This document shows positions 6,862-29,688 of a DNA stretch of 64,000 nt, piece after piece. The stretch covers positions 9,403 to 73,402 of the forward strand of contig CAZMGB010000006.1 in NCBI GenBank assembly GCA_964565775.1, read 5' to 3'. The notes under the pieces are model-generated. The model did no database searches and had not been told where the DNA came from. It saw only the letters and a program-made list of their open reading frames with translations. This DNA is from an uncultured Dehalococcoidia bacterium. GTDB taxonomy: Bacteria > Chloroflexota > Dehalococcoidia > DSTF01 > JALHUB01. Within the stretch, counting starts at the first letter, position 1. Every line of letters starts with the position of its first letter. The translations under genes were made by a program, and so were the position numbers.

Positions 6862-6900
6862 CCGACCCAAGGGCGATTCGCCAGAGTATGGTATCAGGCG

Positions 6901-7404: not shown

Positions 7405-7407
7405 ACC

Positions 7408-8085: not shown

Positions 8086-8097
8086 GAGGCGATAGAC

Positions 8098-8568: not shown

Positions 8569-8586
8569 GGAGATAAGCAAGCAAGG

Positions 8587-12170: not shown

Positions 12171-12184
12171 GGAGGTGCCGTCCA

Positions 12185-13551: not shown

Positions 13552-13571
13552 CCGGTCGGAGCGCGACCGGC
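13551..13571 (+). terminator. GC hairpin directly after the permease stop (GCCGGTCG-GAGCG-CGACCGGC), no U tract
   Basis: Perfect 8-bp stem read directly, followed by a 200-bp gap before the next gene. Confidence 0.3.
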
Positions 13572-13771
13572 CAAAGGGACTATTGGGCTTGCGCGGGACG
13601 ATGGCCGAGGACAACGCGGTGCTCTACGGGGCGATTGCGTTGGGCACCGCCATCGGTCGACTATGGGGTTCATGCTCCCCCAGAGGAATGCTGACCAGTC
13701 ACTCGATAGACACCGGGCTCTGATGCGGGAGGTGTGGGAGAGAGTCGGCACCGTAGCGGCTAGGCAGGAGG

Positions 13772-16359: not shown

Positions 16360-16402
16360 GGGCCTCGTCGGCAGCGCGGGAAGCGAGCACGGAGGGCACG
16401 TC

Positions 16403-16747
16403 ATGGCCGAAGCGAAGAAGAAAGTCTTCCTGCTGGGATCCGAAGGCTGCGGCGCCGGCGACCCTGACCTGGGCTACGAGATCATGATGGTGGTGCTGGG
16501 GGCCCTAGCCGAGCGCGACGACAGGCCCGCGGCCATCATCTGCTGGAATACTGCCGTGAAGCTACTCACCGCGGATTCGCCCGTCGTGCCACATCTCAAG
16601 GCGATAGAGGCGAAGGGCACCAAGATTCTGGCCGGGCAGTTGTGCGTAAACGCGTTGCAGTTGGAGGGGAAGCTTGCCGTGGGGGAGGTCGCCACGCTCG
16701 GCCAGATATTCGACCTCATCCTCCACGAAGACGTCGTCAGCCTCTGA
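16403..16747 (+). CDS. DsrE/DsrF-like small sulfur-relay-type protein (weak call)
   Basis: 114 aa with an alpha/beta pattern, conserved Cys positions (GSEGCG, AIICWN, QLCVNA) and sulfur-gene context. Not verified. Confidence 0.45.
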   Translation: MAEAKKKVFLLGSEGCGAGDPDLGYEIMMVVLGALAERDDRPAAIICWNTAVKLLTADSPVVPHLKAIEAKGTKILAGQLCVNALQLEGKLAVGEVATLGQIFDLILHEDVVSL

Positions 16748-16952
16748 GCCAACCGGGGCGCGATGTAGGTGAACAGTCCCCCCCGTCCTCACAAGCCACC
16801 CCTCGCTTTCAGGAGACACCCGTACCGTGGTCGTTCGTGGCGGCTGCGCCCGCGTGGGGCCACACTACCCAGCGGCCATCAGGCTCGCGGATGAGCCTGC
16901 TGCCTCCCGGAGAGGCATTTCCTTGACAAGTATGGGGAGCGGACCTCGCCCA

Positions 16953-17735
16953 CTAGCGGCACAATCGTGCCCACCAGTCGCGTGTCATCGACTGCTGGGC
17001 GCTCGACAGCACCCTCCCCTTGGGAGACCTGCCGGATTCGCGCTTCCCCCTTGACGAGCGGCCCCTAGCGGGAGACGCTGAGAGGTCACCCGTGATCGTC
17101 GCCGCAGCATCATCCTCGGACTTAGCATCCGTGAGGCGCTCCCACCAGTTGCGTGTCAGCAACTGCTGCGCGCTCGACAGCATTCTCCCCTTGGGAGACC
17201 TGCCGGATTCGCGCTTCCTCCTTGACGAGCGGCCCCTAGCGGGAGACGCTGAGAGGCCACCGGCGATAGTCGCCGCAGCATCGTCTTCGGACTCGGCATC
17301 CGTGAGGCGCTCCCACCAGTCACGTGTCAGCAACTGCTGCGCTATCGACAGCTCTCGTCCGCTGCCATATCTCCTCGTGCCCGGGAGACCGGATATGCGA
17401 CGCGCAGTCATCAGGCCACCGGGGAAGAGGCGCGAAAACTGCCTCTTCGTCATGCCCAGCGCGTTGCAGGTGTAGCGGAGAGAAGCCGCGTTGCCGGTGG
17501 CTTCATAGTAGCTCCGCATGTAGTCGATGACGCGCCAGTGGTCGCTCGTCAGCTCATGGGCCCAGTCCCTCAGCCCTTGACGACGGGCCAGGTACAGGGC
17601 GGCTCCCGGGGTCCACTGAGAGGGGTCTATCATGAAGCCCCGCTCATTGACCTCAACAGGCGTCTCCCATACCACTGCGACAGCCTCAGTCGCTGCTCGC
17701 ATCTTGTTACCCTGGACGGTTGTCATCCTATTCAT
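16953..17735 (-). CDS. DsrC/TusE-like protein lacking both redox Cys, with a repeated WWERLT tail (cassette 1)
   Basis: Start re-called to ATG 17735 (RBS GAGGGAGGTGGG), matching the paralog N-termini (MNRMTTV). The DsrC fold region is NERGFMIDPSQW...HWRVIDYMRSYY. The C-terminus reads ARRISGLPGTRRYG in place of ACKIAGLPKPTGCV, followed by three copies of the AQQLLTRxWWERLT motif. Confidence 0.75.
   Translation of the reverse strand: MNRMTTVQGNKMRAATEAVAVVWETPVEVNERGFMIDPSQWTPGAALYLARRQGLRDWAHELTSDHWRVIDYMRSYYEATGNAASLRYTCNALGMTKRQFSRLFPGGLMTARRISGLPGTRRYGSGRELSIAQQLLTRDWWERLTDAESEDDAAATIAGGLSASPARGRSSRRKRESGRSPKGRMLSSAQQLLTRNWWERLTDAKSEDDAAATITGDLSASPARGRSSRGKRESGRSPKGRVLSSAQQSMTRDWWARLCR
16971..17350. 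repeat. 171-bp in-frame tandem repeat (2 full units plus a partial third)
   Basis: Unit starts (ccaccagt...) lie at 16971, 17142 and 17313. The units are nearly identical and encode a 57-aa tail unit. Confidence 0.8.
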
Positions 17736-17852
17736 AATCCCACCTCCCTCGGCCGTCTCCGGCCCGCTACCGAGCTGTGCACTGTTGGAGCGAGCTCTCG
17801 ACCAGCCGCTCGTGGGCGCTACCTCTTCTGAACCAGTCACCCGGCCGGAGCA

Positions 17853-18692
17853 CTAGTGCCCGCCCCGACGGGGGAACACGAACCCAATCGTAAGCCCCAT
17901 GGCGACGGCGATGGCAAGGGACATGGCGCCGTAGAGCGGAGCGTTGTCTTTGGACATAGTCCCAAGCGAGTCCACCACTCCAACCTTCTCGACGTTGAAG
18001 GTCGTCGCGTCGGATCCTACGACCTCACCGTTTCTCACGTAGTAAGCCTGCACGCTGTAGTCGCCCAACGGGGCATCGGACGGCAGGCTCATGAACGTCT
18101 CCCAGTCACCGCCATCGTCAAGCCGGATGATGCCGCCGCTGGGTGTAGCATCGCACTCCGCGGCTTCGACCTCGTGATAGCACACCCACGGCGTATACCG
18201 ACCGTCTCTGATATACATGTCGCGCAGGGCTGACACGAACTCCATCGCCTTCTCTTCCGTGAGCGGGCTTCCCTCGGCCGTGTCCACCGCCTGTGCTTCG
18301 TCCATAATCGAGGTGGCCGCCGGATCCACGCCCAGCCGGACCTGCGCCTCTCTGCCCAGGAGCACATCCACGGGCTTCGAACTCTGGATCACGTGGATGG
18401 TCGGCACGTTCTTCACCTTGGCTTGGTCGACCGTCATCCAGACCAGGCCCATTACTCTGCCCTTCTTGCTGATCTTGACCGAGTCCGCTGGGCCGTCGAC
18501 CACCACCACGATCTCCGCACCTCCGGGCGCGCTCCCGTAGATGCTCACGTCGGCGCCTCCGAAGTTCAGCCCGACCTTCACAGTCTCGGGTGAGACGCTC
18601 AGGCTCGCTTCCGCGCCAGCTCGCGCCACTACCGACGTAGCGGCGAAGAACGCACTCAGGAGAACGGCCGCAATGACTGCCGCTGCACGCAT
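17853..18692 (-). CDS. exported protein with C-terminal TM anchor, possibly TIGR02186/Alph_Pro_TM-like (cassette 1)
   Basis: Signal peptide, a beta-rich body and a C-terminal helix ending GFVFPRRGGH. Its start overlaps the permease stop (TGATG). Paralog of 24818..25681. Confidence 0.6.
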   Translation of the reverse strand: MRAAAVIAAVLLSAFFAATSVVARAGAEASLSVSPETVKVGLNFGGADVSIYGSAPGGAEIVVVVDGPADSVKISKKGRVMGLVWMTVDQAKVKNVPTIHVIQSSKPVDVLLGREAQVRLGVDPAATSIMDEAQAVDTAEGSPLTEEKAMEFVSALRDMYIRDGRYTPWVCYHEVEAAECDATPSGGIIRLDDGGDWETFMSLPSDAPLGDYSVQAYYVRNGEVVGSDATTFNVEKVGVVDSLGTMSKDNAPLYGAMSLAIAVAMGLTIGFVFPRRGGH

Positions 18693-19912
18693 CAGTGACC
18701 TCCTCCGCTCACCGCAGCCAGCCCGAACACACTGCCCGGAGCCAGCAACAGGTCAAACAGCAACTTCACCATCACGAGAACCACGATGATACCCAGGATC
18801 GTCCGCAACTGGTGGCCTTCCAAGCGGCCGCTCATCCGCGCTCCCATCTGGGCGCCGATGGCAGCGCCGAACATCAGTAGCACTGCGAGCAGGATGTCGA
18901 CGTTGTGGTTCGTGATGGCCTGCTGGAACGCCACATTCGTCGACGTGAACACTATCTGGAACAGGTCCGTCCCCACTGCCACGTGCGTTGGAATGCCGAG
19001 GACGTAGATCATGGACGGCACCATGATGAAGCCACCGCCCACGCCCATGATGGCGGCCAGGAACCCGACGCCCAAGCCCATCCCGGCGGGGAAGAGAGCC
19101 GACACCCGTATCCCCGCCTTGTTGTACTCCGTTTGCAGTGGCAGCCGGGCCACAAAGCGACGGAATCTACTTTCCTTCTTCGGCTTCTCTTCCTCGGCGA
19201 GCTTGACTCTCAGGTCCTCAAAGCCTTCGTCCACGAGGCTCTGGATAGCTCGGGTTCGGGAGCTACGGATCCATGTCCGCACGGATTCCCGCAGCATTAG
19301 GGTACCCATGGTGCCCAACATGACGACGTAGACCACCCGGACCCAGAAGTCGAAGTTGCCCATCTCGCGCAGGATGCTCACAACCCGCACGCCGAGGGTA
19401 CCGCCAAGAATGCTCCCCAGCAGGATCGTCACTCCCAGCTTGATATCGACGTTGCCCAGCCGTGAGTGAGCAAGCGCCCCCGACGAGCCGGTGCCCGCGA
19501 TCTGCGCACTGTCCGTGCCCACCGCCACCGCAGAGGGAACGCCGATCGTCATCAGCAGGGGCGTCATGAGGAAGCCGCCACCTACCCCGGTCATCCCCGA
19601 GAGGATGCCGACCGCGAAGCCAGCGCCCACCACCATGACAACATTCATGCTCTTGTCCGCCACCGGCAGGTACACCGTTAGCGTCGTGACGTTGGGCAAG
19701 GGTATCGCCCCTGCTGCCGCCCCCGCCAGCAGGACGAGCACTACCACCCCCGCAAGGAGTAGGGCGACGCCGCTCGGGCCCAGTGCCTGCGCGGCAGGCG
19801 GCAGGACACGCATTCGCCGGGGGACGGCAGGCGCCACCACCCCCCGTATGAGTGCCTGGTCTTCCCTGGTCAGTTCGACGGTCTCACTCGGCGGTCTCGA
19901 GGTTGCACGCAT
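18692..19912 (-). CDS. TauE/SafE (TSUP) permease with about 100-aa N-terminal extension (cassette 1)
   Basis: GVGGGFLMTPLL and GVGGGFIMVPSM motifs. The N-terminus TVELTREDQALIRGVVAP is shared with cassette 3. Confidence 0.8.
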   Translation of the reverse strand: MRATSRPPSETVELTREDQALIRGVVAPAVPRRMRVLPPAAQALGPSGVALLLAGVVVLVLLAGAAAGAIPLPNVTTLTVYLPVADKSMNVVMVVGAGFAVGILSGMTGVGGGFLMTPLLMTIGVPSAVAVGTDSAQIAGTGSSGALAHSRLGNVDIKLGVTILLGSILGGTLGVRVVSILREMGNFDFWVRVVYVVMLGTMGTLMLRESVRTWIRSSRTRAIQSLVDEGFEDLRVKLAEEEKPKKESRFRRFVARLPLQTEYNKAGIRVSALFPAGMGLGVGFLAAIMGVGGGFIMVPSMIYVLGIPTHVAVGTDLFQIVFTSTNVAFQQAITNHNVDILLAVLLMFGAAIGAQMGARMSGRLEGHQLRTILGIIVVLVMVKLLFDLLLAPGSVFGLAAVSGGGH

Positions 19913-19988
19913 ACCGTTTTCCCCTTCTCTCGGCCGGCGCCGCCGGTCTCGCGGTCGCTGCCTGAGAGCCCCCGCATCCTCGTGGCAC

Positions 19989-20018
19989 TTGCGCCCTAGA
20001 GCCGTGCCACGCTAGAAT
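19989..20018 (+). promoter_or_regulatory. sigma70-like promoter, copy 1 (TTGCGC-N18-TAGAAT), pointing away from the cassette operon
   Basis: The same hexamers at the same spacing recur at 23629 and 26974. The selA upstream region also has TGATAGAAT. Confidence 0.45.
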
Positions 20019-20023
20019 GCACG

Positions 20024-20095
20024 CGGTGACCCTCGCTCCATCGGGGCTCGCCATCATGGACCGTTGGTGGCGTCATCACCGGCGGTCCATTCCTT
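20024..20095 (+). ncRNA. candidate structured small RNA, copy 1 (P1 GGUGA/UCGCC enclosing a C-rich loop, then a 12-bp hairpin)
   Basis: Hairpin GGACCGTTGGTG (20058-20069), loop GCGTCAT, CACCGGCGGTCC (20077-20088). Differences between copies are G-U compatible only on the + strand. No transcript evidence. Confidence 0.35.
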
Positions 20096-20184
20096 GCGTC
20101 TTCCGCGCTAGGTCACAGACAATTGTCGATCCCGACAGATTGAGGTGACCCGCGACTCAAGGATGGCACAAGCCTATGGGCGTC

Positions 20185-20272
20185 GCATGAAGGCTAGGCC
20201 AGGTTATGGTGAAATAGCCCACAAGATTACCTGAAGTATGCGTGAAGCCTACATGAAGATTCCATGAAGGCA
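20185..20272. promoter_or_regulatory. helically phased array of 8 consecutive 11-bp units with core NTGAAG, copy 1
   Basis: Cores at 20187 ATGAAG, 20198 GCCAGG, 20209 GTGAAA, 20220 CACAAG, 20231 CTGAAG, 20242 GTGAAG, 20253 ATGAAG and 20264 ATGAAG. Confidence 0.6.
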
Positions 20273-20373
20273 AACCGCTATCGGCTGGCTCGTAGAATCA
20301 AATGCTAGGGAAAGAGCCGCCACGCGCCCTACCGCAACACCTGGCTCGTTAGCATTAGCAAAACGCGACGACG

Positions 20374-20416
20374 GCGTGAAAATACCGTGGGGATAGTATG
20401 AAGAGTTCGTGAAGAG
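20374..20416. promoter_or_regulatory. second short phased array (4 x 11 bp) upstream of cassette 1
   Basis: Cores at 20376 GTGAAA, 20387 GTGGGG, 20398 ATGAAG and 20409 GTGAAG. Confidence 0.45.
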
Positions 20417-20639
20417 CCGCGCGGCACACCGGTCTAGCCGCTACAGCGTGGCTCGAAAGGACCATCCGCCCCTGCTTCGAAGCCCGCCACACACTCGGCG
20501 ACACTGTCCCAAAGTGCTCCAGGCTCTCTCAGCCGCTTCCAGACCTCAAGCGAGGCCCTTCTTCGAGGAATAGCCGGCGACAGACAGGGGAAGTTGAGAG
20601 AGGACGACTGGTCTTCCGTAGAGGGTTAGGCTGGAACTC

Positions 20640-21455
20640 TCAGTACCCTTCGGCCAGCCACTCACCCGAGATTGTGGCCATGGATGCCGGCAAGGGTATG
20701 GTGTCCCAGGGCTGGCCCAGGCGACGCAGCATGCCAACGTTCCATATGCGGACGGAGTCTTGCCATCCCACAACGTCTCGCACGTGACGGGCTATCCTGT
20801 TGCACAGCTCCAGAAGGACGCTCCAGTCAAGGCTCAGACCCTGCCCGAGGTAGTGGTACTTTTCGTCGCCAGCGAGGGCCCACGGCGCATCCACGTCGGG
20901 AATATCAGGGCATACGATATCCACCCTCCCCTCACCGTGCGGCTCGAGCAGAATCTTCTCAACACGACACTGCCGAGCGAGGTCGACGAACACTTGCGAG
21001 AGGCCCGCCTCCTGGCCCAGGGGCTTAGTGATGCGACCGCCAACCCACGTCACACCTGCGATCTCGCCTCCAAGCACGCCCAGGAACTTTCCCTCCCTCA
21101 CCACCTGGGTCCGCGCCTTGACCGCCTCGCTGGACTCATCCGCGAGCGGCCCGTCCAGAAAAATGCCAAAGCGGCAGTCAAACCAGTGACACCCGAATGC
21201 CGCGTGTCGCGTCAGCTCTATGCGACTGACCTCCTCGCCCGCGAGCAGAATCACCGCCCGTGATCGAGGTGTCCCCAGGAGGCCTTTCTGCCGTTCTATG
21301 ACCATCCTGCATCTCACGCCTTCGCTGCGGAGATGCTGGGCGACCGCCTCTACCAGCTCGGTGTCTTTCATGGCGGATACCTTTCCCTCAAGCCGCCTCT
21401 CCCGCAATCGTGCGGGCCGCGACAACGCAGGCGGTTCAGGATTGGAGATGTTCAC
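20640..21455 (-). CDS. hypothetical protein, translationally coupled to the cassette-2 DsrC-like gene
   Basis: 271-aa ORF whose GTG start overlaps the upstream stop (GTGA). No recognisable motif. Confidence 0.45.
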   Translation of the reverse strand: MNISNPEPPALSRPARLRERRLEGKVSAMKDTELVEAVAQHLRSEGVRCRMVIERQKGLLGTPRSRAVILLAGEEVSRIELTRHAAFGCHWFDCRFGIFLDGPLADESSEAVKARTQVVREGKFLGVLGGEIAGVTWVGGRITKPLGQEAGLSQVFVDLARQCRVEKILLEPHGEGRVDIVCPDIPDVDAPWALAGDEKYHYLGQGLSLDWSVLLELCNRIARHVRDVVGWQDSVRIWNVGMLRRLGQPWDTIPLPASMATISGEWLAEGY

Positions 21456-21937
21456 AGAGGGAGACCGCTCCTCCCTGCGCTACCATCGTGGAACTCGGCA
21501 TCCGTGAGGCGCTCCCACCAGTTACGCGTCATCAACTGCTGCGCTATAGACAGCTCTCGTCCGTTGCCATATCTCCTGGTGCCCGGGAGACCGGATATGC
21601 GGCGCGCAGTCATCAAGCCGCCGGGGAAGAGGCGGGAGAACTGCTTCTTCGTCATGCCCAGCGCGTTGCAGGTAAACCGTAGCGAAGGGGCATTGTCGGT
21701 GGCGTTGTAGTAGACCCGCATGTAGTCGATTACGCGCCAGTGGTCGCTCGTCAGCTCGCGGGGCCAGCCCCTCAGCCCTTGACGACGGGCCAGGTACAGG
21801 GCAGCTCCCGGCGTCCACTGAGAGGGGTCTGTCATGAAGCCCCGCTCATTGACCTCAACCGGCGTTTCCTGTACCGCCGCGCCAGCCTCAGTGGCTGCAT
21901 GCGTCCTATTGCTTCGGACGGTTGTCATCGTAACCAC
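21452..21937 (-). CDS. DsrC/TusE-like protein lacking redox Cys, one WWERLT tail motif (cassette 2)
   Basis: Paralog of 16953..17735 (ETPVEVNERGFMTDPSQWTPGAALYLARRQGL..., tail SIAQQLMTRNWWERLTDAE). RBS GGGAGGTGGG. Confidence 0.75.
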   Translation of the reverse strand: MVTMTTVRSNRTHAATEAGAAVQETPVEVNERGFMTDPSQWTPGAALYLARRQGLRGWPRELTSDHWRVIDYMRVYYNATDNAPSLRFTCNALGMTKKQFSRLFPGGLMTARRISGLPGTRRYGNGRELSIAQQLMTRNWWERLTDAEFHDGSAGRSGLPL

Positions 21938-22054
21938 GATCCCACCTCCCTCGGCCGTCTCCGGCCCGCTACCGAGCTGCTCACCCCTGGAGCGGTCCCG
22001 CCAGCTAGCCGTTCGCCCGTGCTACCTCCTCCGGGCCGGACACCCATCCAGACG

Positions 22055-22130
22055 TTGGTGGTCGGCCCGCCGCCGAGGGAACACGAGTTCGGTGCCCAGC
22101 CCGGCGCCCACGACAATGCGCAGGGATACC
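22055..22130 (-). pseudogene. 3' remnant (about 25 codons) of a TIGR02186-like cassette gene
   Basis: Aligns with the last codons of 24818..25681 (..VFPRRRADH) with the stop mutated to CAA. It lies directly after the stop of the cassette-2 permease. Confidence 0.5.
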
Positions 22131-22132
22131 TC

Positions 22133-23230
22133 CTACCCACCGATAGCTTCAGCAGCTCTCGTACCCTCGAGGATCAGCCTCGCCCGCTGGCGCAGCTCTT
22201 CTTCTCTCTTGCCCTTGAACATGGCTCGAATGATGAGACCGCCGGCGATGAAGAGAGTCCCGTAGAGCACCACTCGACTCACGTTTTCCAGCAAATCGTA
22301 TGTCGTGCCACCCACGCTTATGACCCCCAGGTCCGACAGGTATGCAGGAATCATCACCGCTCTGCTGACCGAGGCCAGGAGCATGATGACAGCGGTGACG
22401 AGCTTGATCATGTATTGTCTGACATAGCTTGTGCCGAGAGCGCCGACTTGCACGCCGACCAGGGAACCAGCCAGGATAATGACGGTCAACCGAAGGTCGA
22501 CGAACCCACGTATCGCCCACTCGTAAGTGCCCTCCGCTCCCATACAGAAGGCGACGATCAGCTCGGTTCCGCTGGCCACAAAGGCGGGGGCGCCGACCAC
22601 GTAGATCATCGCCGGCACGCCGATGAATCCGCCAACGGCTATCGTCGCGGCAAGCATGCCGGTGGCGAAGCCCAGAGGCACCGTGACCCACACTGAGACC
22701 TTCGCGTCCGCCTTCTTGAAATACACCATTGGCGGCAGGTTAAGGCGGGCCACCCGTTTGGCGAAGCTCGGCACCACGTCATCGACGTCCCTGCGCGCCG
22801 CCTTGCGAGCGTCCATCAGCATGTACGTCGCGACGGTAAACAGTACGACCACGAAGGTCACACTGATATAGAGGTCTGAGCCAGCGTCACCCCAGGCGTC
22901 CAGAATGATGTTCTGGATCTGCACACCCACCTTCACGCCAGCGATGGCGGACACAGCCATCACCAACCCCAGCTTCAGGTCGACGTGGCCAAGCTTTCTC
23001 CTCCGCCAGGCCCCAACAAGGGCCTTGGGGAACTTGTGCGCCATATTGCTGGCCACAGCTACGGATCCCGGTACCCCCAGGTTCATCATGCCCGGTGTCA
23101 GCACGAACGCGCCGCCGCTGCCGATGAAGCCGCTCAACATCCCGCCCAGAAAGCCGAGCGTGAACAGAGCCAGTACGGTTAGCAGCCCGATGTCGATGAA
23201 GGATATGTCCCCGTTTGCGGCAGACTCCAT
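22133..23230 (-). CDS. TauE/SafE (TSUP) permease (cassette 2, subtype like paralog 0)
   Basis: GSGGAFVLTPGM and an IAVGGFIGVPAM half-repeat, with a central loop motif (LNLPPMVYF) like IPLWPMIYL of paralog 0. Confidence 0.8.
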   Translation of the reverse strand: MESAANGDISFIDIGLLTVLALFTLGFLGGMLSGFIGSGGAFVLTPGMMNLGVPGSVAVASNMAHKFPKALVGAWRRRKLGHVDLKLGLVMAVSAIAGVKVGVQIQNIILDAWGDAGSDLYISVTFVVVLFTVATYMLMDARKAARRDVDDVVPSFAKRVARLNLPPMVYFKKADAKVSVWVTVPLGFATGMLAATIAVGGFIGVPAMIYVVGAPAFVASGTELIVAFCMGAEGTYEWAIRGFVDLRLTVIILAGSLVGVQVGALGTSYVRQYMIKLVTAVIMLLASVSRAVMIPAYLSDLGVISVGGTTYDLLENVSRVVLYGTLFIAGGLIIRAMFKGKREEELRQRARLILEGTRAAEAIGG

Positions 23231-23233
23231 CGG

Positions 23234-23554
23234 TTATCCCTTCTTGAGTTCCCGGATGCCGAGAAGCTCGAGCAAGGCGCCGGCAAAGCTCCCGTGGATC
23301 ACGCTGAAGGTCAGCGCCAGGCCAAGCACTGCCATAGCGCCGCCGATCGTGCCGGATGTGAGGCGAGGGAAGATGTCCTCGATGAAGCCGAAAAACAGCC
23401 CATACGCCGCAATGGAGGCGGCCCCAAACACGATGAGCCCAACAAGCGAGCGCGAGCGCCCCGCTCGACGTACGACAGCAACCTGCCGGACAAGCTCTTG
23501 GTCTGATCTGACCAGTTCCTCTGTCCTAGTCGTGGGTACCGCAATCCCAACCAT
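23234..23554 (-). CDS. small two-TM membrane protein preceding the cassette-2 permease
   Basis: Start re-called to ATG 23554 (RBS AAGGAGAAG). The longer track ORF would run through the conserved non-coding element. The N-terminus TEELVRSDQELVRQV resembles the N-terminal extension of the cassette 1 and 3 permeases. Confidence 0.55.
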   Translation of the reverse strand: MVGIAVPTTRTEELVRSDQELVRQVAVVRRAGRSRSLVGLIVFGAASIAAYGLFFGFIEDIFPRLTSGTIGGAMAVLGLALTFSVIHGSFAGALLELLGIRELKKG

Positions 23555-23628
23555 CGACTTCTCCTTGCCTACTGATGCCTTGCACGACCCCGGCGGCACG
23601 TACCCGGAAAGCACGCATCGCGACCAAG

Positions 23629-23658
23629 TTGCGCGCTCCGGGTCCGCAGTGCTACAAT
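23629..23658 (+). promoter_or_regulatory. sigma70-like promoter, copy 2 (TTGCGC-N18-TACAAT with TG extension)
   Basis: TTGCGC at 23629-23634 and TGCTACAAT ending at 23658. Confidence 0.45.
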
Positions 23659-23663
23659 GCACG

Positions 23664-23735
23664 TGGCGATCCCCCTGCAGTGGAGCTCGCCATCTCGGGC
23701 CGCTGGTGGCGCTAACACCGGCGGTCCCTTGCATA
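23664..23735 (+). ncRNA. candidate structured small RNA, copy 2
   Basis: P1 GGCGA (23665-23669) / TCGCC (23687-23691). Hairpin GGGCCGCTGGTG (23697-23708), loop GCGCTAA, CACCGGCGGTCC (23716-23727). Confidence 0.35.
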
Positions 23736-23794
23736 TGTATTCCGCGTTCGGTCACATACCGTTGCCGCTACCGACGAGCACGGGTGGCCGACAA

Positions 23795-23910
23795 ATGAAG
23801 CATGTCACAACCTTGCGTAGCTCGCATGAACGCTGCCGCAAGCCTTCATGAAAAAGGCCCCAAGACTCCGTGCAGATAGCATGAGGTCTACATGAGTCCT
23901 CGATGAACCC
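23795..23910. promoter_or_regulatory. 11-bp phased NTGAAG-type array, copy 2
   Basis: ATGA cores at 23826, 23848, 23881, 23892 and 23903 are all in one 11-bp register, with weaker cores between them. An out-of-register ATGAAG-N5-CACAA at 23795 is homologous to 27130 in copy 3. Confidence 0.55.
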
Positions 23911-24149
23911 GCCGGAGCCTCTGGCTACAGTCCGGACTCAAACCCCACAGCGTGAGCCGCCACGAAGCCTGCGACGAGACGCGGCCGACTGGCCGCCGTC
24001 GCAGTCACGCTAACCTTAGACCAGGGCCAGGTTAGTGTTAGCGGAGTGCCAGAACAGAGTGAGGCGGAAGTGAGGAACGTATTAGGATTAGATGAAGCTA
24101 TGGAAGCGTCGGGCAGAAGACCGGTTCAGCCGCTATGGCGAGGTTCGGA

Positions 24150-24229
24150 GCGAAGGCGGCACCGTAGAGGCACTCACCCACCCTCCTCCGGCATGTAGCC
24201 CACCCCGCGCATCGTCTGGACGACGTGGC
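24150..24229 (-). pseudogene. scar of a deleted two-component system: last ~17 codons of an OmpR-type RR plus first ~7 codons of the HK
   Basis: The minus strand reads ..VVQTMRGVGYMPEEGG-stop-GTG-PLRCRL, against the intact junction at 28640-28700 (..LIQTIRAVGYMLKEGA-stop-GTG-PLRLRL). Confidence 0.55.
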
Positions 24230-24733
24230 TCAGAGCTTCGGAGGAACGCGCTGCAGGGGTGCGTCACGCGGGATTCCATCCTCTTCGGACCCAGCACCCG
24301 TGAGGCGCTCCCACCAGTCGCGTGTCATCAACTGCTGCGCTATCGACACTTCCCGTCGGTTGGCGGACCTTCTCGGCCCCGGAAGACCGGATATGCGGCG
24401 CACGGTCATCAGGCCACCGGGGAAGAGGCGGGTGAAGTGCCTCTTCGTCATGCCCAGCGCACGGCAGGTGTACCGGAGCGAAGGGGCATTGCCGGTGGCC
24501 TCATAGTAGACCCGCATGTAGTCGATAACACGCCAGTGGTCGCTCGTCAGCTCATGGGGCCAGTCCTTGAGCCCCTGATGACGGGCCAGGTACAGGGCAG
24601 CTCCCGGCGTCCACTGAGAGGGGTCTGTCATGAAGCCCCGCTCATTGACCTCAACCGGCGTTTCCTGTACCGCCGCGACAGCCTCAGTTGCAGCCTGCGT
24701 CTTACTGTCTCCGACGGTTGTCATCCTGTTCAT
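24230..24733 (-). CDS. DsrC/TusE-like protein lacking redox Cys, one WWERLT tail motif (cassette 3)
   Basis: Paralog of the other two (MNRMTTV..., tail SIAQQLMTRDWWERLTGAG). Confidence 0.75.
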   Translation of the reverse strand: MNRMTTVGDSKTQAATEAVAAVQETPVEVNERGFMTDPSQWTPGAALYLARHQGLKDWPHELTSDHWRVIDYMRVYYEATGNAPSLRYTCRALGMTKRHFTRLFPGGLMTVRRISGLPGPRRSANRREVSIAQQLMTRDWWERLTGAGSEEDGIPRDAPLQRVPPKL

Positions 24734-24817
24734 AATCCCACCTCCCTCGGCCGTCTCCGGCCCGCAGCTAGCCGCTCGCCTGTGCTACCTCTTCCGAGCC
24801 ACACGCCCATCCAGGCG

Positions 24818-25681
24818 TCAGTGGTCGGCCCGCCGCCGAGGGAACACGAATCCGGTGGCCAGCCCGACGGCGATGATGATGCCCAGGCACAACGCGCCGT
24901 AGAGCGGAGCTTTGTCCTTCGCCATCGAGCCGAGCGAGTCCACCAAGCCGGCCTTCCTGACACTGAAGGTCGCCGAGTCGGACCCGACCACCTGGCCATC
25001 CTTGATGCAATACGAGTCCACGGTGTAGTCACCGAGCGGGGCATCCCAAGACAGGCTAACCCACGTCTCCCATCGCCCATTCTTCAGATGGATGACGTTA
25101 TCGCCCGGCGCCGTGCCGGCCGCCGTGTCCCCCACACTGGCCGCGGCCACCGGTAGCGCGCCCTGACAGCTCGGGCACGCGACGTAGCGGCCGTCCCTGA
25201 TGTACATGTCACGGAGCCCCGCTATGAACTCCGCCGCCTTATCCTCCGAGACCGCCGTCCCCTCACCCGGGTCGACCGCCCGGGCCTGGCTCACGATAGA
25301 CGCGGACATGGGGTCCACGCCCAGTCGGAGCTGCTCTTCCTGGCTCAAGATCTTGTCTATCTCGTCCGAGCTGTAGACCACGTGGAAGGCCGGCATGTTC
25401 TCAACCTGAGCGTGGCCGACGGTCATCCAGAAGAGTCCCAGCACCTTGCCCTTCTTGCTTACCTTCACGGAGTCCGTCGGCCCGTCGACCTTGAGAACCA
25501 CCTGCGTACCCTCGGGCGCCGTCCCATAGACGTGTACGTCGTACCCCGTGAAGTCCAACCCAACGTCCACGACGCTCGGCGAGACGCTCATGGTCGGCCC
25601 CTCGTCAGCCCACGCCGACTGCGCCGTCGCGGTCAAGAAGGTGGCGAGGAGAAGAGAAACGAAGCACAGGAGCGCACGCAT
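24818..25681 (-). CDS. exported protein with C-terminal TM anchor, possibly TIGR02186/Alph_Pro_TM-like (cassette 3)
   Basis: 287-aa paralog of 17853..18692 (VSPSVVDVGLDFTGYDVHVYGTAP..., C-terminal GFVFPRRRADH). Confidence 0.6.
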   Translation of the reverse strand: MRALLCFVSLLLATFLTATAQSAWADEGPTMSVSPSVVDVGLDFTGYDVHVYGTAPEGTQVVLKVDGPTDSVKVSKKGKVLGLFWMTVGHAQVENMPAFHVVYSSDEIDKILSQEEQLRLGVDPMSASIVSQARAVDPGEGTAVSEDKAAEFIAGLRDMYIRDGRYVACPSCQGALPVAAASVGDTAAGTAPGDNVIHLKNGRWETWVSLSWDAPLGDYTVDSYCIKDGQVVGSDSATFSVRKAGLVDSLGSMAKDKAPLYGALCLGIIIAVGLATGFVFPRRRADH

Positions 25682-26898
25682 CAGTGACCTCCTCCACCTA
25701 CCGAAACCACCCCGAACACACTGCCCGGAGCCATCAGCAGGTCAAACAGCAACTTGATCATCACCAGGAGCACGATGACACTCAGAATCGTCCGCAACTG
25801 GTGGCCTTCCAGGCGGCCGCTCATCCGCGCCCCCACCTGGGCGCCGATGGCGGCGCCAACCAGCAACAGCACGCCGAGCAAGATATCGACGTTGTGGTTG
25901 GTGATCGCCTGCTGGAACGCCACGTTCGAGGACGTGAAGACCATCTGGAAGAGGCTTGTCCCTACCGCAACGTGTGTCGGGACGCCGAGGATGTAGATCA
26001 TCGCCGGCACCATGATGAAGCCACCGCCCACCCCCATCAGGGCAGTCAGCAAGCCGATACTCAGACCCAGACCGAAGGGAAAGAGCAAAGAGGCACGTAT
26101 CTTCGAGGTGTGGAAGTCCATCTGGAGTGGCCAGCGAGCCGTAACGCCGCCCGACCGTCCTGCGTCCGGCTGCTCCCGCGCTACGAGCTTTGCCCCCCCT
26201 TCGTCGGAGCCCTCACCCACCGCGCTCCTGATGATTTGGGGCCGCGTGCTGCGCACCCAGGTCCGCACGGCCTCCCGCAACATGAAGCTGCCGACACTGC
26301 CCAGCATGATGATGTAGACTATTCGGACGCAGAAGTCGAAGTTGCCCATCTCGCGCAGCAAGTAGACGACACGCACGCCGACGGTGCCGCCGATAAGGGC
26401 CCCAACCAGGATCACCAACCCCAGTTTGACATCGACGTTGCCCAGCCTCGAATGGCCGAGTGCCCCCGATGAGGCGGTGCCCGCGATCTGCGCACTGTCC
26501 GTGCCCACCGCCACCGCAGAGGGAATGCCGATCGTCATCAGCAGGGGCGTCATGAGAAAGCCGCCACCCACCCCCGTCATCCCGGAGAGAATGCCGACCG
26601 CGAAGCCGATACCCACCAGTGGGACGACATTCATGCTCTTGTCCGCCACCGGCAGGTAGATCGTTAGCGTGAAGATGTTGGGCAAGGGTATCGCCCCCGC
26701 TGCCGTCCCCGCCAGCAGGACGAGCACCACCACCCCCGCAAGAAGAAGCGCGACGCCGCTCAGGCCCAGCGCGTGCGCGACAGGCAGCAGGACACGCAGC
26801 CCACGGGGTGCGGTGGGGGCCACCACCCCTCGAATGAGTGCCTGGTCCTCCCTGGTCAGTTCGACGGTGTCGGTCGGCGGTGGTAAGGTCGAACTCAT
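25681..26898 (-). CDS. TauE/SafE (TSUP) permease with N-terminal extension (cassette 3)
   Basis: Start re-called to ATG 26898 (RBS GAGGGGAAG) to match the cassette-1 paralog (MSSTLPPPTDTVELTREDQALIRG). The track start at 27075 would read through the conserved non-coding element. Confidence 0.8.
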   Translation of the reverse strand: MSSTLPPPTDTVELTREDQALIRGVVAPTAPRGLRVLLPVAHALGLSGVALLLAGVVVLVLLAGTAAGAIPLPNIFTLTIYLPVADKSMNVVPLVGIGFAVGILSGMTGVGGGFLMTPLLMTIGIPSAVAVGTDSAQIAGTASSGALGHSRLGNVDVKLGLVILVGALIGGTVGVRVVYLLREMGNFDFCVRIVYIIMLGSVGSFMLREAVRTWVRSTRPQIIRSAVGEGSDEGGAKLVAREQPDAGRSGGVTARWPLQMDFHTSKIRASLLFPFGLGLSIGLLTALMGVGGGFIMVPAMIYILGVPTHVAVGTSLFQMVFTSSNVAFQQAITNHNVDILLGVLLLVGAAIGAQVGARMSGRLEGHQLRTILSVIVLLVMIKLLFDLLMAPGSVFGVVSVGGGGH

Positions 26899-26973
26899 CA
26901 GCTTCCCCTCACTTGCTGCTTGGTACCACCAGCCCGGCGGCGGTTGCCTCGGAAGTGGTGCATCGCCACAACG

Positions 26974-27003
26974 TTGCGCGCTCCAGGATCGCCATGCTAG
27001 AAT
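26974..27003 (+). promoter_or_regulatory. sigma70-like promoter, copy 3 (TTGCGC-N18-TAGAAT with TG extension)
   Basis: TTGCGC at 26974-26979 and TGCTAGAAT ending at 27003. Confidence 0.45.
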
Positions 27004-27008
27004 GCGCG

Positions 27009-27080
27009 CGGCGACCCTCCCTCCGCTGGAGCTCGCCATCCTGGGCCGCCGGTGGTACCAGCACCGGCGGTCCACTTATG
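27009..27080 (+). ncRNA. candidate structured small RNA, copy 3
   Basis: P1 GGCGA/TCGCC enclosing CCCTCCCTCCGCTGGAGC. Hairpin GGGCCGCCGGTG (27043-27054), loop GTACCAG, CACCGGCGGTCC (27062-27073). Confidence 0.35.
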
Positions 27081-27125
27081 TCAATGTTCACATACAGTCT
27101 GCACAGGAGCTCACCGCGATGCTCC

Positions 27126-27245
27126 GTGAATGAAGAATGCCACAAGCAGGAGCGACCTGCATGAACAGACGCTGAAGGCAGATTCAGAATGGAGTCAGGA
27201 TTGCGTTACAGGATGATAAGGGAGGTATTAAGGCTTCACGAAGCG
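27126..27245. promoter_or_regulatory. 11-bp phased NTGAAG-type array, copy 3, abutting the HK stop
   Basis: Cores at 27161 ATGAAC, 27172 CTGAAG, 27183 TTCAGA, 27194 GTCAGG, 27205 GTTACA, 27216 ATAAGG, 27227 ATTAAG and 27238 ACGAAG, plus ATGAAG 27130 and CACAAG 27141. Confidence 0.5.
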
Positions 27246-27269
27246 GAGGGGGGCTGCTGGGTGGCGGGG

Positions 27270-29399: not shown

Positions 29400-29688
29400 G
29401 AACTGCCTCGCTGATCGTGCTAGCGGTCGCGCCCGGTCTGTCCCGACTGGAACATAGCACCGCTCTCAAGTCGACGTCAATGGCTGATGGCTTGCCCCGT
29501 AAGCGTGATACGCCACCGTGCGGTGAACACTTGGGGCCTGTCTCGAGGATGTGCGTGTCAGAGGCACGCGCTACCGAAGTCGACGGAGGATCTGATCGCT
29601 GATGTGATCGATATGAGGCACCCGCCTCCGGCGGCGAGGTGGCCGCCTTTGAGGTGTTGTGGCTTCCACCGGATGCGGGCGCGGCTCG

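Follow-up and report, generated by a model that had tools for sequence, protein, structure and literature searches.

Permeases of the TSUP family have been implicated in the traffic of sulfite, sulfonate and sulfate (PMC5840216, PMC9918477), and across the family the substrates vary widely and are for the most part unproven. TsuA/TsuB is an example of a sulfur transporter in the membrane that depends on a small cytoplasmic partner of sulfur-relay fold (PMC11582611). Here we describe a locus of an uncultured Dehalococcoidia bacterium (GCA_964565775.1, contig CAZMGB010000006.1, 9,403-73,402 of the forward strand; this whole stretch of 64,000 nt is called the window), where a TauE-type permease is combined with a relative of DsrC that lacks the catalytic arm cysteines and, usually, with an exported partner. 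Three such cassettes stand in tandem on the minus strand between 16953 and 26898 (Table 1). According to our analysis this cassette unit is a real and undescribed one that relatives share, and the proposed transport module would be confined to one clade of sulfate-reducing Dehalococcoidia. We would give an even chance to the explanation that the array consists of three copies of an inducible TSUP transport module, each under its own promoter, and that a DsrC-fold protein without catalytic function is the partner or regulator in it.

Table 1. Features of the cassette array and of its surroundings (positions in the window)
Feature	Position	Strand	Basis and details
TauE0, fourth TSUP permease	12478-13551	+	Pfam 3.8e-39; inside dsr/qmo supercluster
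DsrC-like 1, 260 aa from ATG 17735	16953-17735	-	Pfam DsrC 1.5e-16
APT1, exported PF09608 protein, 279 aa, C-terminal TM anchor	17853-18692	-	Pfam 4.8e-45
TauE1, TSUP permease, 406 aa, N-terminal extension	18692-19912	-	Pfam PF01925 8.2e-50
Cassette-1 element	19989-20088	+	putative -35 TTGCGC 19989-19994, -10 TAGAAT 20013-20018; hairpins, P1 core 20061-20085
Cassette-1 control region	20159-20275	-	CTTCATG/CTTCATG/CTTCACG/CTTCAGG/CTTGTGG and TTGTGCCATCCTT box
ORF without family match (cassette 2)	20640-21455	-	Pfam/NCBIfam searches
DsrC-like 2, 161 aa	21452-21937	-	Pfam DsrC 6.4e-18; pI 10.3
PF09608-gene 3'-end remnant and downstream spacer (cassette 2)	21992-22124	-	aligns to APT3 gene 3' end; reads ...VFPRRRADH
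TauE2, TSUP permease, different subtype, 365 aa	22133-23230	-	Pfam PF01925 7.8e-37
Small two-TM protein, 106 aa	23234-23554	-	ORF list
Cassette-2 element	23629-23727	+	putative -35 TTGCGC 23629-23634, TG-extended -10 TACAAT 23653-23658; hairpins, P1 core 23700-23724
Cassette-2 control region	23798-23910	-	phased TTCATG-type heptamers and TTGTGACATGCTT box
DsrC-like 3, 167 aa	24230-24733	-	Pfam DsrC 5.4e-19; pI 9.7
APT3, exported PF09608 protein, 287 aa	24818-25681	-	Pfam 5.3e-41
TauE3, TSUP/TauE permease, 405 aa	25681-26898	-	Pfam PF01925 2.5e-47
Cassette-3 element	26974-27073	+	putative -35 TTGCGC 26974-26979, -10 TAGAAT 26998-27003; hairpins P2', P1', P1 core 27046-27070
Cassette-3 control region	27133-27250	-	11-bp-phased CTTCGTG/CTTAATA... 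heptamers and TTGTGGCATTCTT box
Sensor histidine kinase	27270-28646	-	Pfam: extracytoplasmic 2CSK_N, HAMP, HisKA, HATPase
OmpR/PhoB-family response regulator, receiver and winged-helix output	28647-29399	-	Pfam Response_reg 2.8e-31, Trans_reg_C 2.2e-25
Conserved cytoplasmic protein, 324 aa, four conserved Cys	29689-30663	-	65-73% identity in 7 loci

The ORF list and the paralogy alignments agree with the three tandem cassettes of the first-pass annotation: 300-nt DNA blocks are 72-89% identical, and at the protein level TauE1 and TauE3 share 74%, APT1 and APT3 51%, and the DsrC-like proteins about 83% identity. The families assigned there hold as well, all nine calls being above the Pfam gathering cut-offs (TauE PF01925, Alph_Pro_TM PF09608, DsrC PF04358), while TIGR02186 and TIGR03342 match, yet under the NCBIfam cut-offs. 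At its N-terminus TauE3 carries a cytoplasmic motif, TVELTREDQALIRGVVAP, and its TM profile shows an additional TM helix; the N-terminus of the small two-TM protein, TEELVRSDQELVRQV, resembles the N-terminal extension of TauE1 and TauE3 in local alignment. TauE2 had rightly been taken for a different subtype (31-34% identical to the other paralogues); it and TauE0 are distinct subtypes, at 31-36%. Orthologues of TauE2 (79-85% identity) and of the small two-TM protein (106-107 aa) occur in the related loci L002, L004 and L006. TauE0 has a small TM ORF upstream (about 12167-12481), and the order qmoC-small ORF-TauE is kept in L036 and L037; in the window TauE0 is without a DsrC-like gene and without the conserved upstream element described below, of which a covariance model scan found no copy there.

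The exported-protein gene of cassettes 1 and 3 starts, as had been noticed, before the permease gene has ended, the stop and start codons sharing one base. APT3 has an N-terminal signal or anchor and a C-terminal TM anchor, and the ectodomain of APT1 is modelled by AF2 (pLDDT 82.6) as a beta-sandwich with a helical insert bearing a Cys pair; compared with PDB folds, this model gave no significant match. The insert with its Cys pair is clade-specific, with CxxCH in some homologues, and the PF09608 family as a whole has no conserved Cys or His. The TauE-PF09608 pair itself, named in the annotation as a conserved one, is indeed widespread: the neighbourhood census finds it, with overlapping stop and start and without the DsrC-like gene, in a Bacillota MAG and in distant (25% identical) metagenome contigs. 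By analogy with this pair, the PF09608 protein is probably an extracytoplasmic permease subunit. The addition of a DsrC-like gene, which had been thought undescribed, is clade-specific and was not found in the literature searched. The suspected scar of the exported-protein gene in cassette 2 is also real, and since the same remnant is kept in L006, the architecture of this cassette is old and stable. The 271-aa ORF of cassette 2 does exist, but the coupling ascribed to it is doubtful, because its start is probably 21371, giving 243 aa, the length in L004. The gene is a passenger that not every relative has: L004 carries it, L006 has an acetyltransferase gene in its place and L002 has none.

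Related Dehalococcoidia MAGs and metagenome contigs carry the genes of a response regulator and histidine kinase, then one to three copies of permease, optional PF09608 protein and DsrC-like protein, and the conserved 324-aa protein (L002, L004, L006, L008, L009, L010, L026; partial versions in L012 and L020-L027). The triplication is thus real in the window but not unique to it, the MAG of L002 having the identical three-cassette order. What stays constant is the pair of permease and DsrC-like protein, whichever of the three permease subtypes is involved (TauE1/3, TauE2 or TauE0-like, the last in L028, L029, L031 and L033). The linkage to the two-component system is conserved and the adjacency to dsr, to which the annotation had given weight, is not: the dsr/apr/qmo supercluster is present in three of the three genomes checked, but in GCA_964632905.1 and GCA_964417775.1 it lies on another contig than the cassette locus, and in the window the four permeases span 12478-26898, 9-23 kb from dsrAB and not all within 15 kb. 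This lack of conserved adjacency counts against our explanation. A DsrC-like/YedF-like/DsrK2 junction recurs in two metagenome contigs (L032, L034), and in L008 a DsrK-like and DsrC-like pair adjoins the response regulator. To judge by family names and genome-level co-occurrence, the cassettes may serve the traffic of sulfite, thiosulfate or sulfonates for Dsr that the annotation proposed, and a sulfur oxyanion or an organosulfonate would be the most likely substrate.

The copy number and genomic context that vary among relatives, together with the gene remnant inside cassette 2 and an integrase fragment adjoining the regulator gene in L006, could also be taken as traces of a mobile or decaying island, with duplicated cargo and a nuclease-like gene and with no coordinated present function. 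The window's gene order is moreover a circular permutation of that of the relatives, the 324-aa gene standing upstream of the response regulator instead of at the array end, and the C-terminus of the encoded protein is weakly PD-(D/E)xK-like (Pfam matches are weak only: MTES_1575, E 0.016; DUF559, E 0.15; no relative was found in PDB). We hold such an island for very improbable: all ORFs are intact, orthologues are 55-90% identical across MAGs, even the remnant is conserved in L006, and the window's array shows no flanking direct repeats, no compositional anomaly and no transposase or integrase.

Dedicated two-component control, as suggested before, looks likely, since the two genes are upstream of the cassettes in all nine loci having upstream sequence, and repeat boxes precede every cassette. 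The regulator gene has its own sigma-70-like promoter (TTGACG-18-TATGTT, 29451-29480), and in the kinase two TM helices, at about 1-31 and 156-187 by hydropathy, flank the 2CSK_N domain. The best NCBIfam match of the regulator is PhoB (218 bits, under its cut-off); that of the kinase, over the full length, is the heavy-metal sensor kinase TIGR01386 (229.7 bits against a cut-off of 292.55), an observation unfavourable to our explanation, as is the TauE domain found by NCBIfam match in the metal-associated magnetosome protein MamO. One may think then of a metal-ion or envelope-stress module unrelated to sulfur, where a CusS/CopS-like kinase would sense a metal and the permease and the exported Cys-pair protein, with its clade-specific insert, would handle it; the regulator reaches 188.5 bits with the cztR/silR/copR model, and neighbours in L002, L004, L006, L010 and L012 are unrelated to sulfur. 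However, both scores are under the curated cut-offs, PhoB and MtrA models outscore cztR/silR/copR for the regulator, the PF09608 family lacks a conserved Cys or His, the third cassette gene encodes a DsrC-family protein, and the genomes belong to dsr/apr/qmo sulfate reducers, some loci touching dsrK-like genes. We regard the metal reading as quite unlikely.

Every cassette has its own control region made of two parts, phased repeats and a hairpin element. The 11-bp-phased CTTCAYG repeats look like OmpR/PhoB-type boxes; in cassette 1 the heptamers follow in exact 11-bp steps (20269...20225), with another at 20192. Six of the seven matches of the two-box pattern in the window fall in the three cassette upstream regions (1.5 expected), and so do three of the three occurrences of TTGTGRCATYCTT (0.08 expected); eight other loci have the same boxes, 150-200 nt upstream of their hairpin element. 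The element, about 110 nt long with two covarying hairpins, sits between these boxes and the start codon, 75-110 nt from the cassette ATG. Over 15 aligned copies 87% of cells are paired, where slid controls reach no more than 51%, with compensatory changes in eight pairs, and none of 500 shuffles reaches the observed values. The covariance model finds three further copies outside its training set and just three in the window. It does not detect the element in the one-cassette loci L010 and L012, which weighs against our explanation.

Read on the opposite strand, all 15 copies of the element show a sigma-70-like promoter (TTGCGC-N17/18-TAGAAT, in general form TTGnnn-N17/18-TAnnAT), and a cis-antisense RNA is thereby suggested. 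Upstream of the cassettes no sense-strand sigma-70 promoter is recognisable, a point to our explanation's disadvantage. The location of the element just before each cassette, its covarying hairpins with invariant unpaired stretches, and an invariant GAGCCC that could pair alternatively with a downstream GGGUUC in some copies would also suit a sense-strand function in the 5'-UTR of the cassette mRNA, as riboswitch or attenuator. We find this unlikely, as the invariant "unpaired" bases are the TTG and TA..AT of the opposite strand, 17-18 nt apart in all 15 copies, and in 13 of these the hairpins are the more stable on the antisense strand. Sense-strand helices contain 30 A.C cells against 7 G.U cells, a bias that comes mostly from three alignment columns; towards the ATG, the 3' part shows little conservation and no consensus structure, and the element has no family match in Rfam.

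The DsrC-like proteins remain DsrC-like in fold: DsrC-like 3 is alignable to the DsrC chains 1ji8, 1yx3 and 1sau, and its AF2 model gives Foldseek TMt of 0.71-0.80 to DsrC structures. Both cysteines of the C-terminal swinging arm are missing in every family member examined, so these proteins are unable to carry sulfur as DsrC or TusE do, and a role as DsrC-type sulfur carriers is ruled out. To call them "Cys-less" went too far, however, for one invariant internal Cys (RYTC) is kept, common to them and to the window's true DsrC. The C-terminus consists of a linker and a WW helix. In DsrC-like 1 (ORF 16953-17840, true start probably 17735) an in-frame tandem repeat of 171 nt (16970-17352; by TRF 2.2 copies, 91% matches, no indels) brings the WW-helix module to three copies, and relatives have one to three modules. 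In charge they are the reverse of the window's true DsrC, with pI 9.7-10.8 against 4.6. This strongly basic charge fits nucleic-acid binding at least as well as permease docking.

Each DsrC-like protein might then be an RspA-type nucleic-acid-binding regulator, autoregulating its own cassette through the conserved inverted repeat CCGCCGGTG-N7-CACCGGCGG or an RNA hairpin made from it, and not a transporter partner. Besides the charge, the arginine-rich tail (PRRSANRRE...) followed by a conserved helix would agree with this, and the gene and the element occur together: the window's TauE0 has neither, the TauE0-like cassettes of L029, L031 and L033 have both, and both are missing from the TauE-PF09608 pairs outside the clade. 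Grimm et al. in 2010 are said to have seen DsrC of A. vinosum bind dsr promoter DNA. Against it, L010 and L012 have DsrC-like genes with no detectable element, the only Foldseek matches beyond DsrC itself, to HTH folds, are non-significant (E at least 0.65), a two-component regulator is already there, and the covariation preserves complementarity and not sequence, as one would expect of a hairpin in RNA or DNA more than of an operator bound by protein. The chance of such a regulator seems low to us.

We thus favour the inducible transport module, whose core would be a TSUP/TauE permease and a small basic cytoplasmic DsrC-fold protein, with the PF09608 protein of cassettes 1 and 3, an exported beta-sandwich protein with a single membrane pass, coupled in translation to the permease. 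The kinase may sense an extracytoplasmic signal via 2CSK_N, and the phosphorylated regulator would bind the phased CTTCAYG repeats and activate each cassette. The reverse-facing consensus-like promoter in the 5' region would give a short two-hairpin antisense RNA, and this RNA would silence the cassette as long as it is not activated. The DsrC-like protein would be a non-catalytic partner gating or regulating the permease; alternatively, it may feed back on expression. TsuA (YeeE) needs TsuB (YeeD), and we propose that the permease and the DsrC-like protein form a parallel to this pair.

What the window holds is a multiplied cassette specific to its clade, in which a TSUP permease and a basic DsrC-fold protein stripped of its arm cysteines never vary; a conserved two-component system stands before the cassettes, and each of them possesses a private, conserved control region.

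ORF listing and profile searches bear out the three-cassette minus-strand anatomy proposed in the first-pass annotation for this part of a 152-kb contig. The permeases, exported proteins and DsrC-like proteins of the cassettes score far over the Pfam gathering cut-offs (PF01925, PF09608, PF04358); the NCBIfam equivalogs TIGR02186, TusE and TIGR03342 match only below cut-offs. The cassettes are paralogous at the DNA level (72-89% identity across 300-nt blocks) and at the protein level, with 74% for the permeases TauE1 and TauE3, 51% for the exported proteins APT1 and APT3, and ~83% for the DsrC-like trio, while TauE2 and the fourth permease of the window, TauE0, are just 31-36% identical to the remaining permeases. 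The scar of the exported protein noticed earlier in cassette 2 is real: it can be aligned to the final ~20 codons of the APT3 gene and the spacer after them, and still reads ...VFPRRRADH. As the same remnant is present in the related locus L006, the architecture of cassette 2 must be old. The 271-aa ORF of this cassette is without a family match, and its slot is filled by a 243-aa orthologue in L004 and by an acetyltransferase in L006 and is empty in L002. Judged by the L004 orthologue, its real start is probably the ATG at 21371, in which case the ORF would not be translationally coupled to DsrC-like 2, as had been supposed.

Coordinates of the features in the window and, where indicated, in related loci
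Feature	Coordinates	Strand	Description
dsr supercluster		+	dsrN, dsrA, dsrB, DsrD-position ORF, dsrC, dsrMK, Rieske/cytochrome b complex, qmoC, small TM ORF, TauE0, dsrMK-like pair, YedF-like
DsrD-position ORF	3604-3825	+	winged-helix, 73 aa
True dsrC	3837-4166	+	ends CKIAGLPKPTGCV; 125.8 bits
bc-type complex	6540-9183	+	dihaem ORF (two CxxCH), Rieske, split cytochrome b, CxxCH protein
Small TM ORF and TauE0	~12167-13551	+	ORF of ~100 aa; L036 20884-21227; L037 20863-21233
TauE0	12478-13551	+	TSUP permease
Second DsrM/DsrK-like pair and YedF-like	13772-16747	+	convergent with DsrC-like 1 (16953, -)
YedF-like protein	16403-16747	+	DsrE fold
Cassette 1, DsrC-like 1	16953-17735	-
Tandem repeat in DsrC-like 1	16970-17352	-	171 nt, in frame, 2.2 copies, 91% matches
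Cassette 1, APT1	17853-18692	-	PF09608 protein
Cassette 1, TauE1	18692-19912	-	permease
Cassette 2, 271-aa ORF	20640-21455	-
Cassette 2, DsrC-like 2	21452-21937	-
Cassette 2, PF09608 remnant	21992-22124
Cassette 2, TauE2	22133-23230	-	permease, other subtype
Cassette 2, 106-aa protein	23234-23554	-	two TM
Cassette 3, DsrC-like 3	24230-24733	-
Cassette 3, APT3	24818-25681	-	PF09608 exported protein
Cassette 3, TauE3	25681-26898	-	permease
Heptamer arrays	20192-20275, ~23800-23910, ~27150-27250	-	CTTCAYG-like, 11-bp phase
Element copies	19989-20088, 23629-23727, 26974-27073	+	conserved, ~110 nt, two covarying hairpins
HK	27270-28646	-	histidine kinase with extracytoplasmic 2CSK_N domain
RR	28647-29399	-	OmpR/PhoB-type response regulator
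324-aa protein	29689-30663	-	four conserved Cys, weak PD-(D/E)xK (MTES_1575/DUF559-like) C-terminus
324-aa protein, relatives	L002 11676-12725, L004 12096-13070, L006 11429-12403		also in L021, L027, L029
1024-aa hybrid protein	30983-34057	-	PAS x2, GAF, HisKA/HATPase, receiver, OmpR-type DNA-binding output

The DsrC-like proteins score 61-69 bits with PF04358 (cut-off 24.9) and can be aligned to solved DsrC chains as far as GLP(G/K)P, diverging beyond it. DsrC proper is recognised by two cysteines in the C-terminal arm, with the motif AGLPKPTGC[AV] used by DiSCo (PMC8477390); the arm of the DsrC-like proteins reads SGLPG(P/T)RR..., where Arg stands in the place of CysB and no member has the penultimate Cys. 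They are not literally free of cysteine, as the first-pass annotation had it, since a single internal Cys (RYTC) is invariant and common to the true DsrC of the window. The earlier assignment to a DsrC/TusE-like family survives at the level of PF04358 but fails for the TusE models, with 23-29 bits against 191 for NF008562, 43-51 against 53.5 for TIGR03342, and no C-terminal Cys. Due to the loss of the arm cysteines these proteins, judged by their sequences, cannot be sulfur carriers of the DsrC or TusE type. The AF2 model retains the DsrC fold (pLDDT >85 at residues 25-120), and Foldseek places it on DsrC structures with TMt of 0.71-0.80 and rmsd of ~2 A; to this fold the model adds a linker, basic and disordered, and then a helix at residues 131-145 bearing an invariant WW, with the consensus SxAQQLxTRxWWxRLT. 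The tandem repeat in DsrC-like 1 triples this linker and helix module, and since homologues of 145-261 aa carry one, two or three modules, their number is evolutionarily labile. The pI of 9.7-10.8, against 4.6 for the true DsrC, may be taken as an indirect hint of a DNA-binding regulatory activity. One of the main rival explanations makes the DsrC-like protein a nucleic-acid-binding regulator which reads a conserved inverted repeat or hairpin; this charge reversal speaks for it, and so does the co-occurrence of DsrC-like genes with the hairpin element upstream of the cassettes.

All four permeases of the window cover profile positions 1-237 of PF01925 with 127.6-170.1 bits (cut-off 32.6), and a simple hydropathy profile gives 8-9 hydrophobic segments in two blocks with a polar loop between them, where the family would have about 8 TM helices from a 4+4 internal duplication; a sequence search of the PDB returned nothing for the permease, nor did it for the exported protein. 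We considered whether the motif ELTRxDQ at the N-terminus is a docking site found wherever there are DsrC-like genes, but as a rule this is ruled out by L029, L031 and L033, where the TauE0-like cassettes encode small proteins without the motif.

APT1 and APT3 reach 154.5 and 141.3 bits with PF09608 (cut-off 24.5); the TIGR02186 label suggested previously is not supported at the equivalog level (87.8 and 63.9 bits against 255.25), and by these scores they are distant members of the superfamily outside that equivalog. The confident AF2 model of APT1 (pLDDT 82.6) shows the ectodomain as a beta-sandwich that includes a helical insert, flanked by an N-terminal signal or anchor and a C-terminal TM helix, and a fold search with it gave generic beta-sandwich matches alone, none with E <1e-3, and therefore no functional lead. 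The insert carries a Cys pair and is found only in PF09608 proteins of the Dehalococcoidia type, distantly related TIGR02186-like homologues being without it; across the family no Cys or His is conserved. The pair itself takes the form CPSCQ in APT3, C...C in APT1 and, in several homologues, CxxCH, which resembles a haem c-binding motif. A PF09608 gene stands directly 3' of a TauE gene in cassettes 1 and 3, in all related loci and in L014 and L015-L017, and a genome scan with a narrow PF09608 alignment gave 6 loci, all from Dehalococcoidia. The co-occurrence of exported protein and permease on which the earlier hypothesis depended thus extends to relatives, and it reaches a Bacillota MAG and distantly related metagenome contigs, where the two genes overlap at their stop and start codons and no DsrC-like gene is present. 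It follows that the TauE-PF09608 pair (TIGR02186, 'Alph_Pro_TM') is old and that the addition of the DsrC-like gene is clade-specific. Cassettes 1 and 3 belong to this pair and share its C-terminally anchored exported protein; they differ from the Bacillota and distant versions in that their proteins share just 24-31% identity with them, carry the Cys-pair insert and are followed by the DsrC-like gene. In the literature searched we found no mention of TIGR02186, PF09608 or Alph_Pro_TM and no described function for the pair.

Contig lookups, genome and metagenome scans and tblastn mapping show that the unit recurs in related Dehalococcoidia MAGs and metagenome contigs, with homologues of the exported and DsrC-like proteins forming tight, small families and with a conserved layout of RR - HK - (permease - [PF09608] - DsrC-like) x 1-3 - 324-aa protein. 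The triplication is real, but it is less special than it had seemed: L002 (GCA_964406605.1) matches the window in its three cassettes and in their order, L004 and L006 carry two each, and L008, L009, L010, L012 and L026 one. What does not vary is the pairing of permease and DsrC-like protein, which holds for three permease subtypes; the TauE0-like subtype, with 71-76% identity to TauE0, is represented in L028, L029, L031 and L033. The PF09608 protein is optional. The dedicated two-component system proposed for the array is upheld by two-component genes upstream in 9/9 loci with at least 0.5 kb of upstream sequence, counting L012 with the response regulator only and L009 and L024 with the kinase only.

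In the window these two genes lie beyond the array, downstream in coordinates and upstream in transcription, and have the domains of an OmpR/PhoB-type system: a receiver with winged-helix Trans_reg_C in the response regulator, and HAMP with HisKA/HATPase in the kinase. The response regulator scores 188.5 bits with TIGR01387 (cut-off 279.2), and its best model, PhoB, is also under the cut-off. A second rival explanation, that the system responds to metals or envelope stress, draws on the resemblance of the kinase to the heavy-metal sensor family, TIGR01386 being its best full-length model with 229.7 bits against a cut-off of 292.55. The 324-aa protein is a constant companion of the array, and its conservation of 65-73% is above that of the exported protein; a PDB sequence search with it was empty. 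Its gene ends the array in relatives and lies upstream of the RR gene in the window, so that the two gene orders are related by circular permutation. No flanking direct repeats marking a mobile island were found. The 1024-aa hybrid protein adjoins the locus, and a homologue of it (1011-1985) lies directly 3' of a DsrC-like gene in L025.

On the plus strand, upstream of the array in the window, lies a reductive dissimilatory sulfur supercluster, in which qmoC scores 331.7 bits against a cut-off of 300. The ORF at the DsrD position has no DsrD-family match, its sole above-threshold Pfam match being a Z-alpha winged helix (E 1.2e-4); the dsr contigs of two relatives, L036 and L037, have an ORF of 69-73 aa in this slot and are collinear with the window for the bc-type complex between dsrMK and qmoC. 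In these three genomes the small TM ORF and TauE0 follow directly 3' of qmoC, inside the dsr/qmo supercluster. TauE0 has neither a DsrC-like gene nor a control element, and the TauE0-like permeases of L029, L031 and L033 have acquired both. Owing to its fixed position, TauE0 with its small TM partner, and not the set of triplicated cassettes, would be the better candidate for the respiratory sulfur-anion transporter.

The placement of the cassettes beside dsr, initially seen as a special feature, is not conserved, as in L002, L004, L006, L010 and L012 the cassette loci have unrelated genes on either side. The DsrA homologues nearest to that of the window (89% and 85%) come from the same MAGs as L004 and L006, on other contigs, and the superclusters of those two MAGs are collinear with that of the window down to qmoC-small ORF-TauE0, which makes the genome-level co-occurrence of the cassette with dsr/apr/qmo 3/3. 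The junction of DsrC-like, YedF-like and DsrK2 genes recurs in metagenome contigs L032 and L034, and in L008 (6-1463) a DsrK-like gene is directly followed by another DsrC-like gene beside the RR gene. This recurring junction and the L008 pair may hint that the DsrC-like proteins, cysteine-free in the arm, still meet DsrK-type partners. From the co-occurrence and the junctions a sulfur connection is plausible, but, with adjacency not conserved, it is not positional. A Dehalococcoidia dsr paper and a review of sulfate-reducing microorganisms contain no mention of TauE or DsrC-like genes.

Control regions were compared by alignment of the three upstream regions of the window and then of all cassettes in related loci. 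Upstream of cassette 1 the heptamers follow five exact 11-bp steps (20269 to 20225), with one more at 20192; a two-box heptamer pattern has 7 matches in the window, 6 of them upstream of the three cassettes, where 1.5 would be expected; in eight other loci the pattern precedes the hairpin element by 150-200 nt, and the TTGTGRCATYCTT box precedes the cassettes in 3/3 cases against 0.08 expected. Arrays and box together are candidate binding sites of the adjacent OmpR/PhoB-type response regulator. At the scan stringency used, no sense-strand sigma-70 -35/-10 promoter was found for the cassettes.

Between these boxes and the start codons lies the hairpin element, copies of which are also present in L002, L004, L006, L008, L009, L022, L024, L026, L029, L031 and L033. 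Across 15 copies aligned with MAFFT, pairing is seen in 87% of cells, and sliding the partners gives no more than 51%; eight pairs show compensatory changes, and 0/500 shuffles match the observed values. A covariance model built on these copies detected three further ones outside its training set (L029 with 66.7 bits, L033 with 48.9 bits, L022 truncated), exactly three copies in the window, none of them beside TauE0, and no copy in L010, L012 or the TauE-PF09608 loci from outside Dehalococcoidia. Rfam 15 gave nothing at gathering thresholds in the window and nothing relevant at E <=5 in 16500-30000. On the opposite strand the invariant unpaired bases of the element read TTG and TA..AT with a spacing of 17-18 nt in 15/15 copies, mostly as TTGCGC-N18-TAGAAT, often with a TG extension. 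The third main rival holds the element to be a sense-strand leader; read on the sense strand, the helices have 30 A.C against 7 G.U mismatches, a bias coming mainly from three alignment columns, and the antisense fold is the more stable in 13/15 copies, two points in favour of the opposite strand. It would be most economical to read the element as a conserved promoter firing against the cassette and making a ~70-nt two-hairpin RNA, a candidate cis-antisense small RNA of which the GC-rich 3' hairpin could be the terminator. A leader peptide within the element and a small conserved ORF on its antisense strand were both ruled out, as reading frames differ between copies, and for a third or RBS-sequestering helix downstream single-sequence folds disagree and RNAalifold finds none.

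We can suggest how these parts would work together. The kinase would sense an external signal and the response regulator would bind the phased heptamers and activate each cassette, which the facing promoter and its antisense RNA would hold shut before activation; the PF09608 protein may be an outer subunit of the permease, and the DsrC-like protein may dock on it or regulate it without chemistry of its own, for which TsuA/TsuB offers a precedent. The substrate, as a guess from the reported roles of TSUP permeases and from the sulfate-reducing genomes that carry the unit, would be a sulfur oxyanion or a sulfonate. A bolder reading joins two linked proposals. The DsrC fold may have passed from a redox-active sulfur carrier to a basic protein without cysteines that serves TSUP permeases alone, as their regulator or gatekeeper, and that with the PF09608 subunit and the permease would constitute a hitherto unrecognised three-part sulfur transport or signalling complex in sulfate-reducing Chloroflexota. 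Each cassette would be switched by a regulatory device of a new kind, a promoter activated by the response regulator and facing a conserved constitutive promoter of the antisense RNA, whose hairpin the DsrC-like protein might read. That both hold together we regard as rather unlikely, and we offer the combination as a tentative one. We see the control element and the repurposed DsrC fold as more interesting than triplication or dsr adjacency. The locus touches the question of which transporters dissimilatory sulfate reducers use for sulfate, sulfite and thiosulfate. TSUP permeases are plentiful in these organisms and essentially uncharacterised (PMC5840216), and the locus offers a compact, probably strongly regulated TSUP system that has two dedicated accessory proteins. 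The function-less PF09608 family gains a first context and the DsrC fold a clear case of reuse without DsrC chemistry, and the control region provides experimental handles in the candidate response-regulator box and the putative antisense promoter with its structured RNA.

All gene families involved are known, and so are operons of a permease and a sulfur-relay protein under dedicated sensors (cst/yrk, TsuAB, SoxT). The features that we consider new, none of which we found described in the searchable literature, are a basic, cysteine-free DsrC-fold partner that bears a WW-helix module and is strictly paired with TSUP permeases of three subtypes, the joining of these to the function-less PF09608 subunit, the expansion in copy number, and the conserved element of repeat boxes and facing-promoter hairpins. 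The closest known relatives of the permeases are TSUP proteins of the TauE/SafE/TsaS type (TCDB 2.A.102), such as TauE of Cupriavidus necator and YrkJ/TauE of the cst/yrk sulfide-detoxification clusters, with which they have PF01925 and, probably, an 8-TM core in common. TSUP genes of this type often adjoin those for the sulfur-trafficking proteins TusA, DsrE, rhodanese and PDO and are under sulfur-responsive regulators, among them a two-component system in B. licheniformis (PMC9918477). The cassettes differ in a permease extended at its N-terminus by a cytoplasmic motif and a further TM helix, or accompanied by a separate small TM protein, in a DsrC-fold partner without carrier cysteine in place of TusA, DsrE or rhodanese, in their multiple copies, and in having no sulfite-making or -consuming enzyme (such as PDO, SQR or Xsc) inside.

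In TsuA (YeeE)-TsuB (YeeD) and SoxT1B, similarly, a membrane transporter of sulfur compounds works with the product of a neighbouring gene, a small cytoplasmic protein with a sulfur-relay fold that in TsuA/TsuB is essential, and SoxT1B is a paralogue devoted to signalling and not to bulk import (PMC11582611). However, the transporter families (YeeE/YedE and TSUP) are unrelated, and TsuB works via a conserved cysteine, which the matching arm of the DsrC-like proteins does not have. The heptamers resemble the pho boxes of PhoB/OmpR-type activation in that they are direct repeats, phased at 11 bp, in front of promoters without a good -35, but the heptamer itself, CTTCAYG, is no pho box, the repeats number up to 6-8 in phase, and they are putative binding sites. 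The element is similar to convergent-promoter or cis-antisense switches in that a consensus-like promoter faces that of the regulated gene and would produce antisense RNA covering the 5' part of this gene. Within the DsrC family, the branch called RspA was reportedly first defined by Venceslau et al. in 2014. By resemblance the DsrC-like proteins fit this cysteine-less branch (named in PMC8477390), as they keep the DsrC fold, are without both C-terminal arm cysteines, and a regulatory role is suspected for it; they differ from it by the basic linker with one to three WW helices and by their strict linkage to TSUP permease genes.
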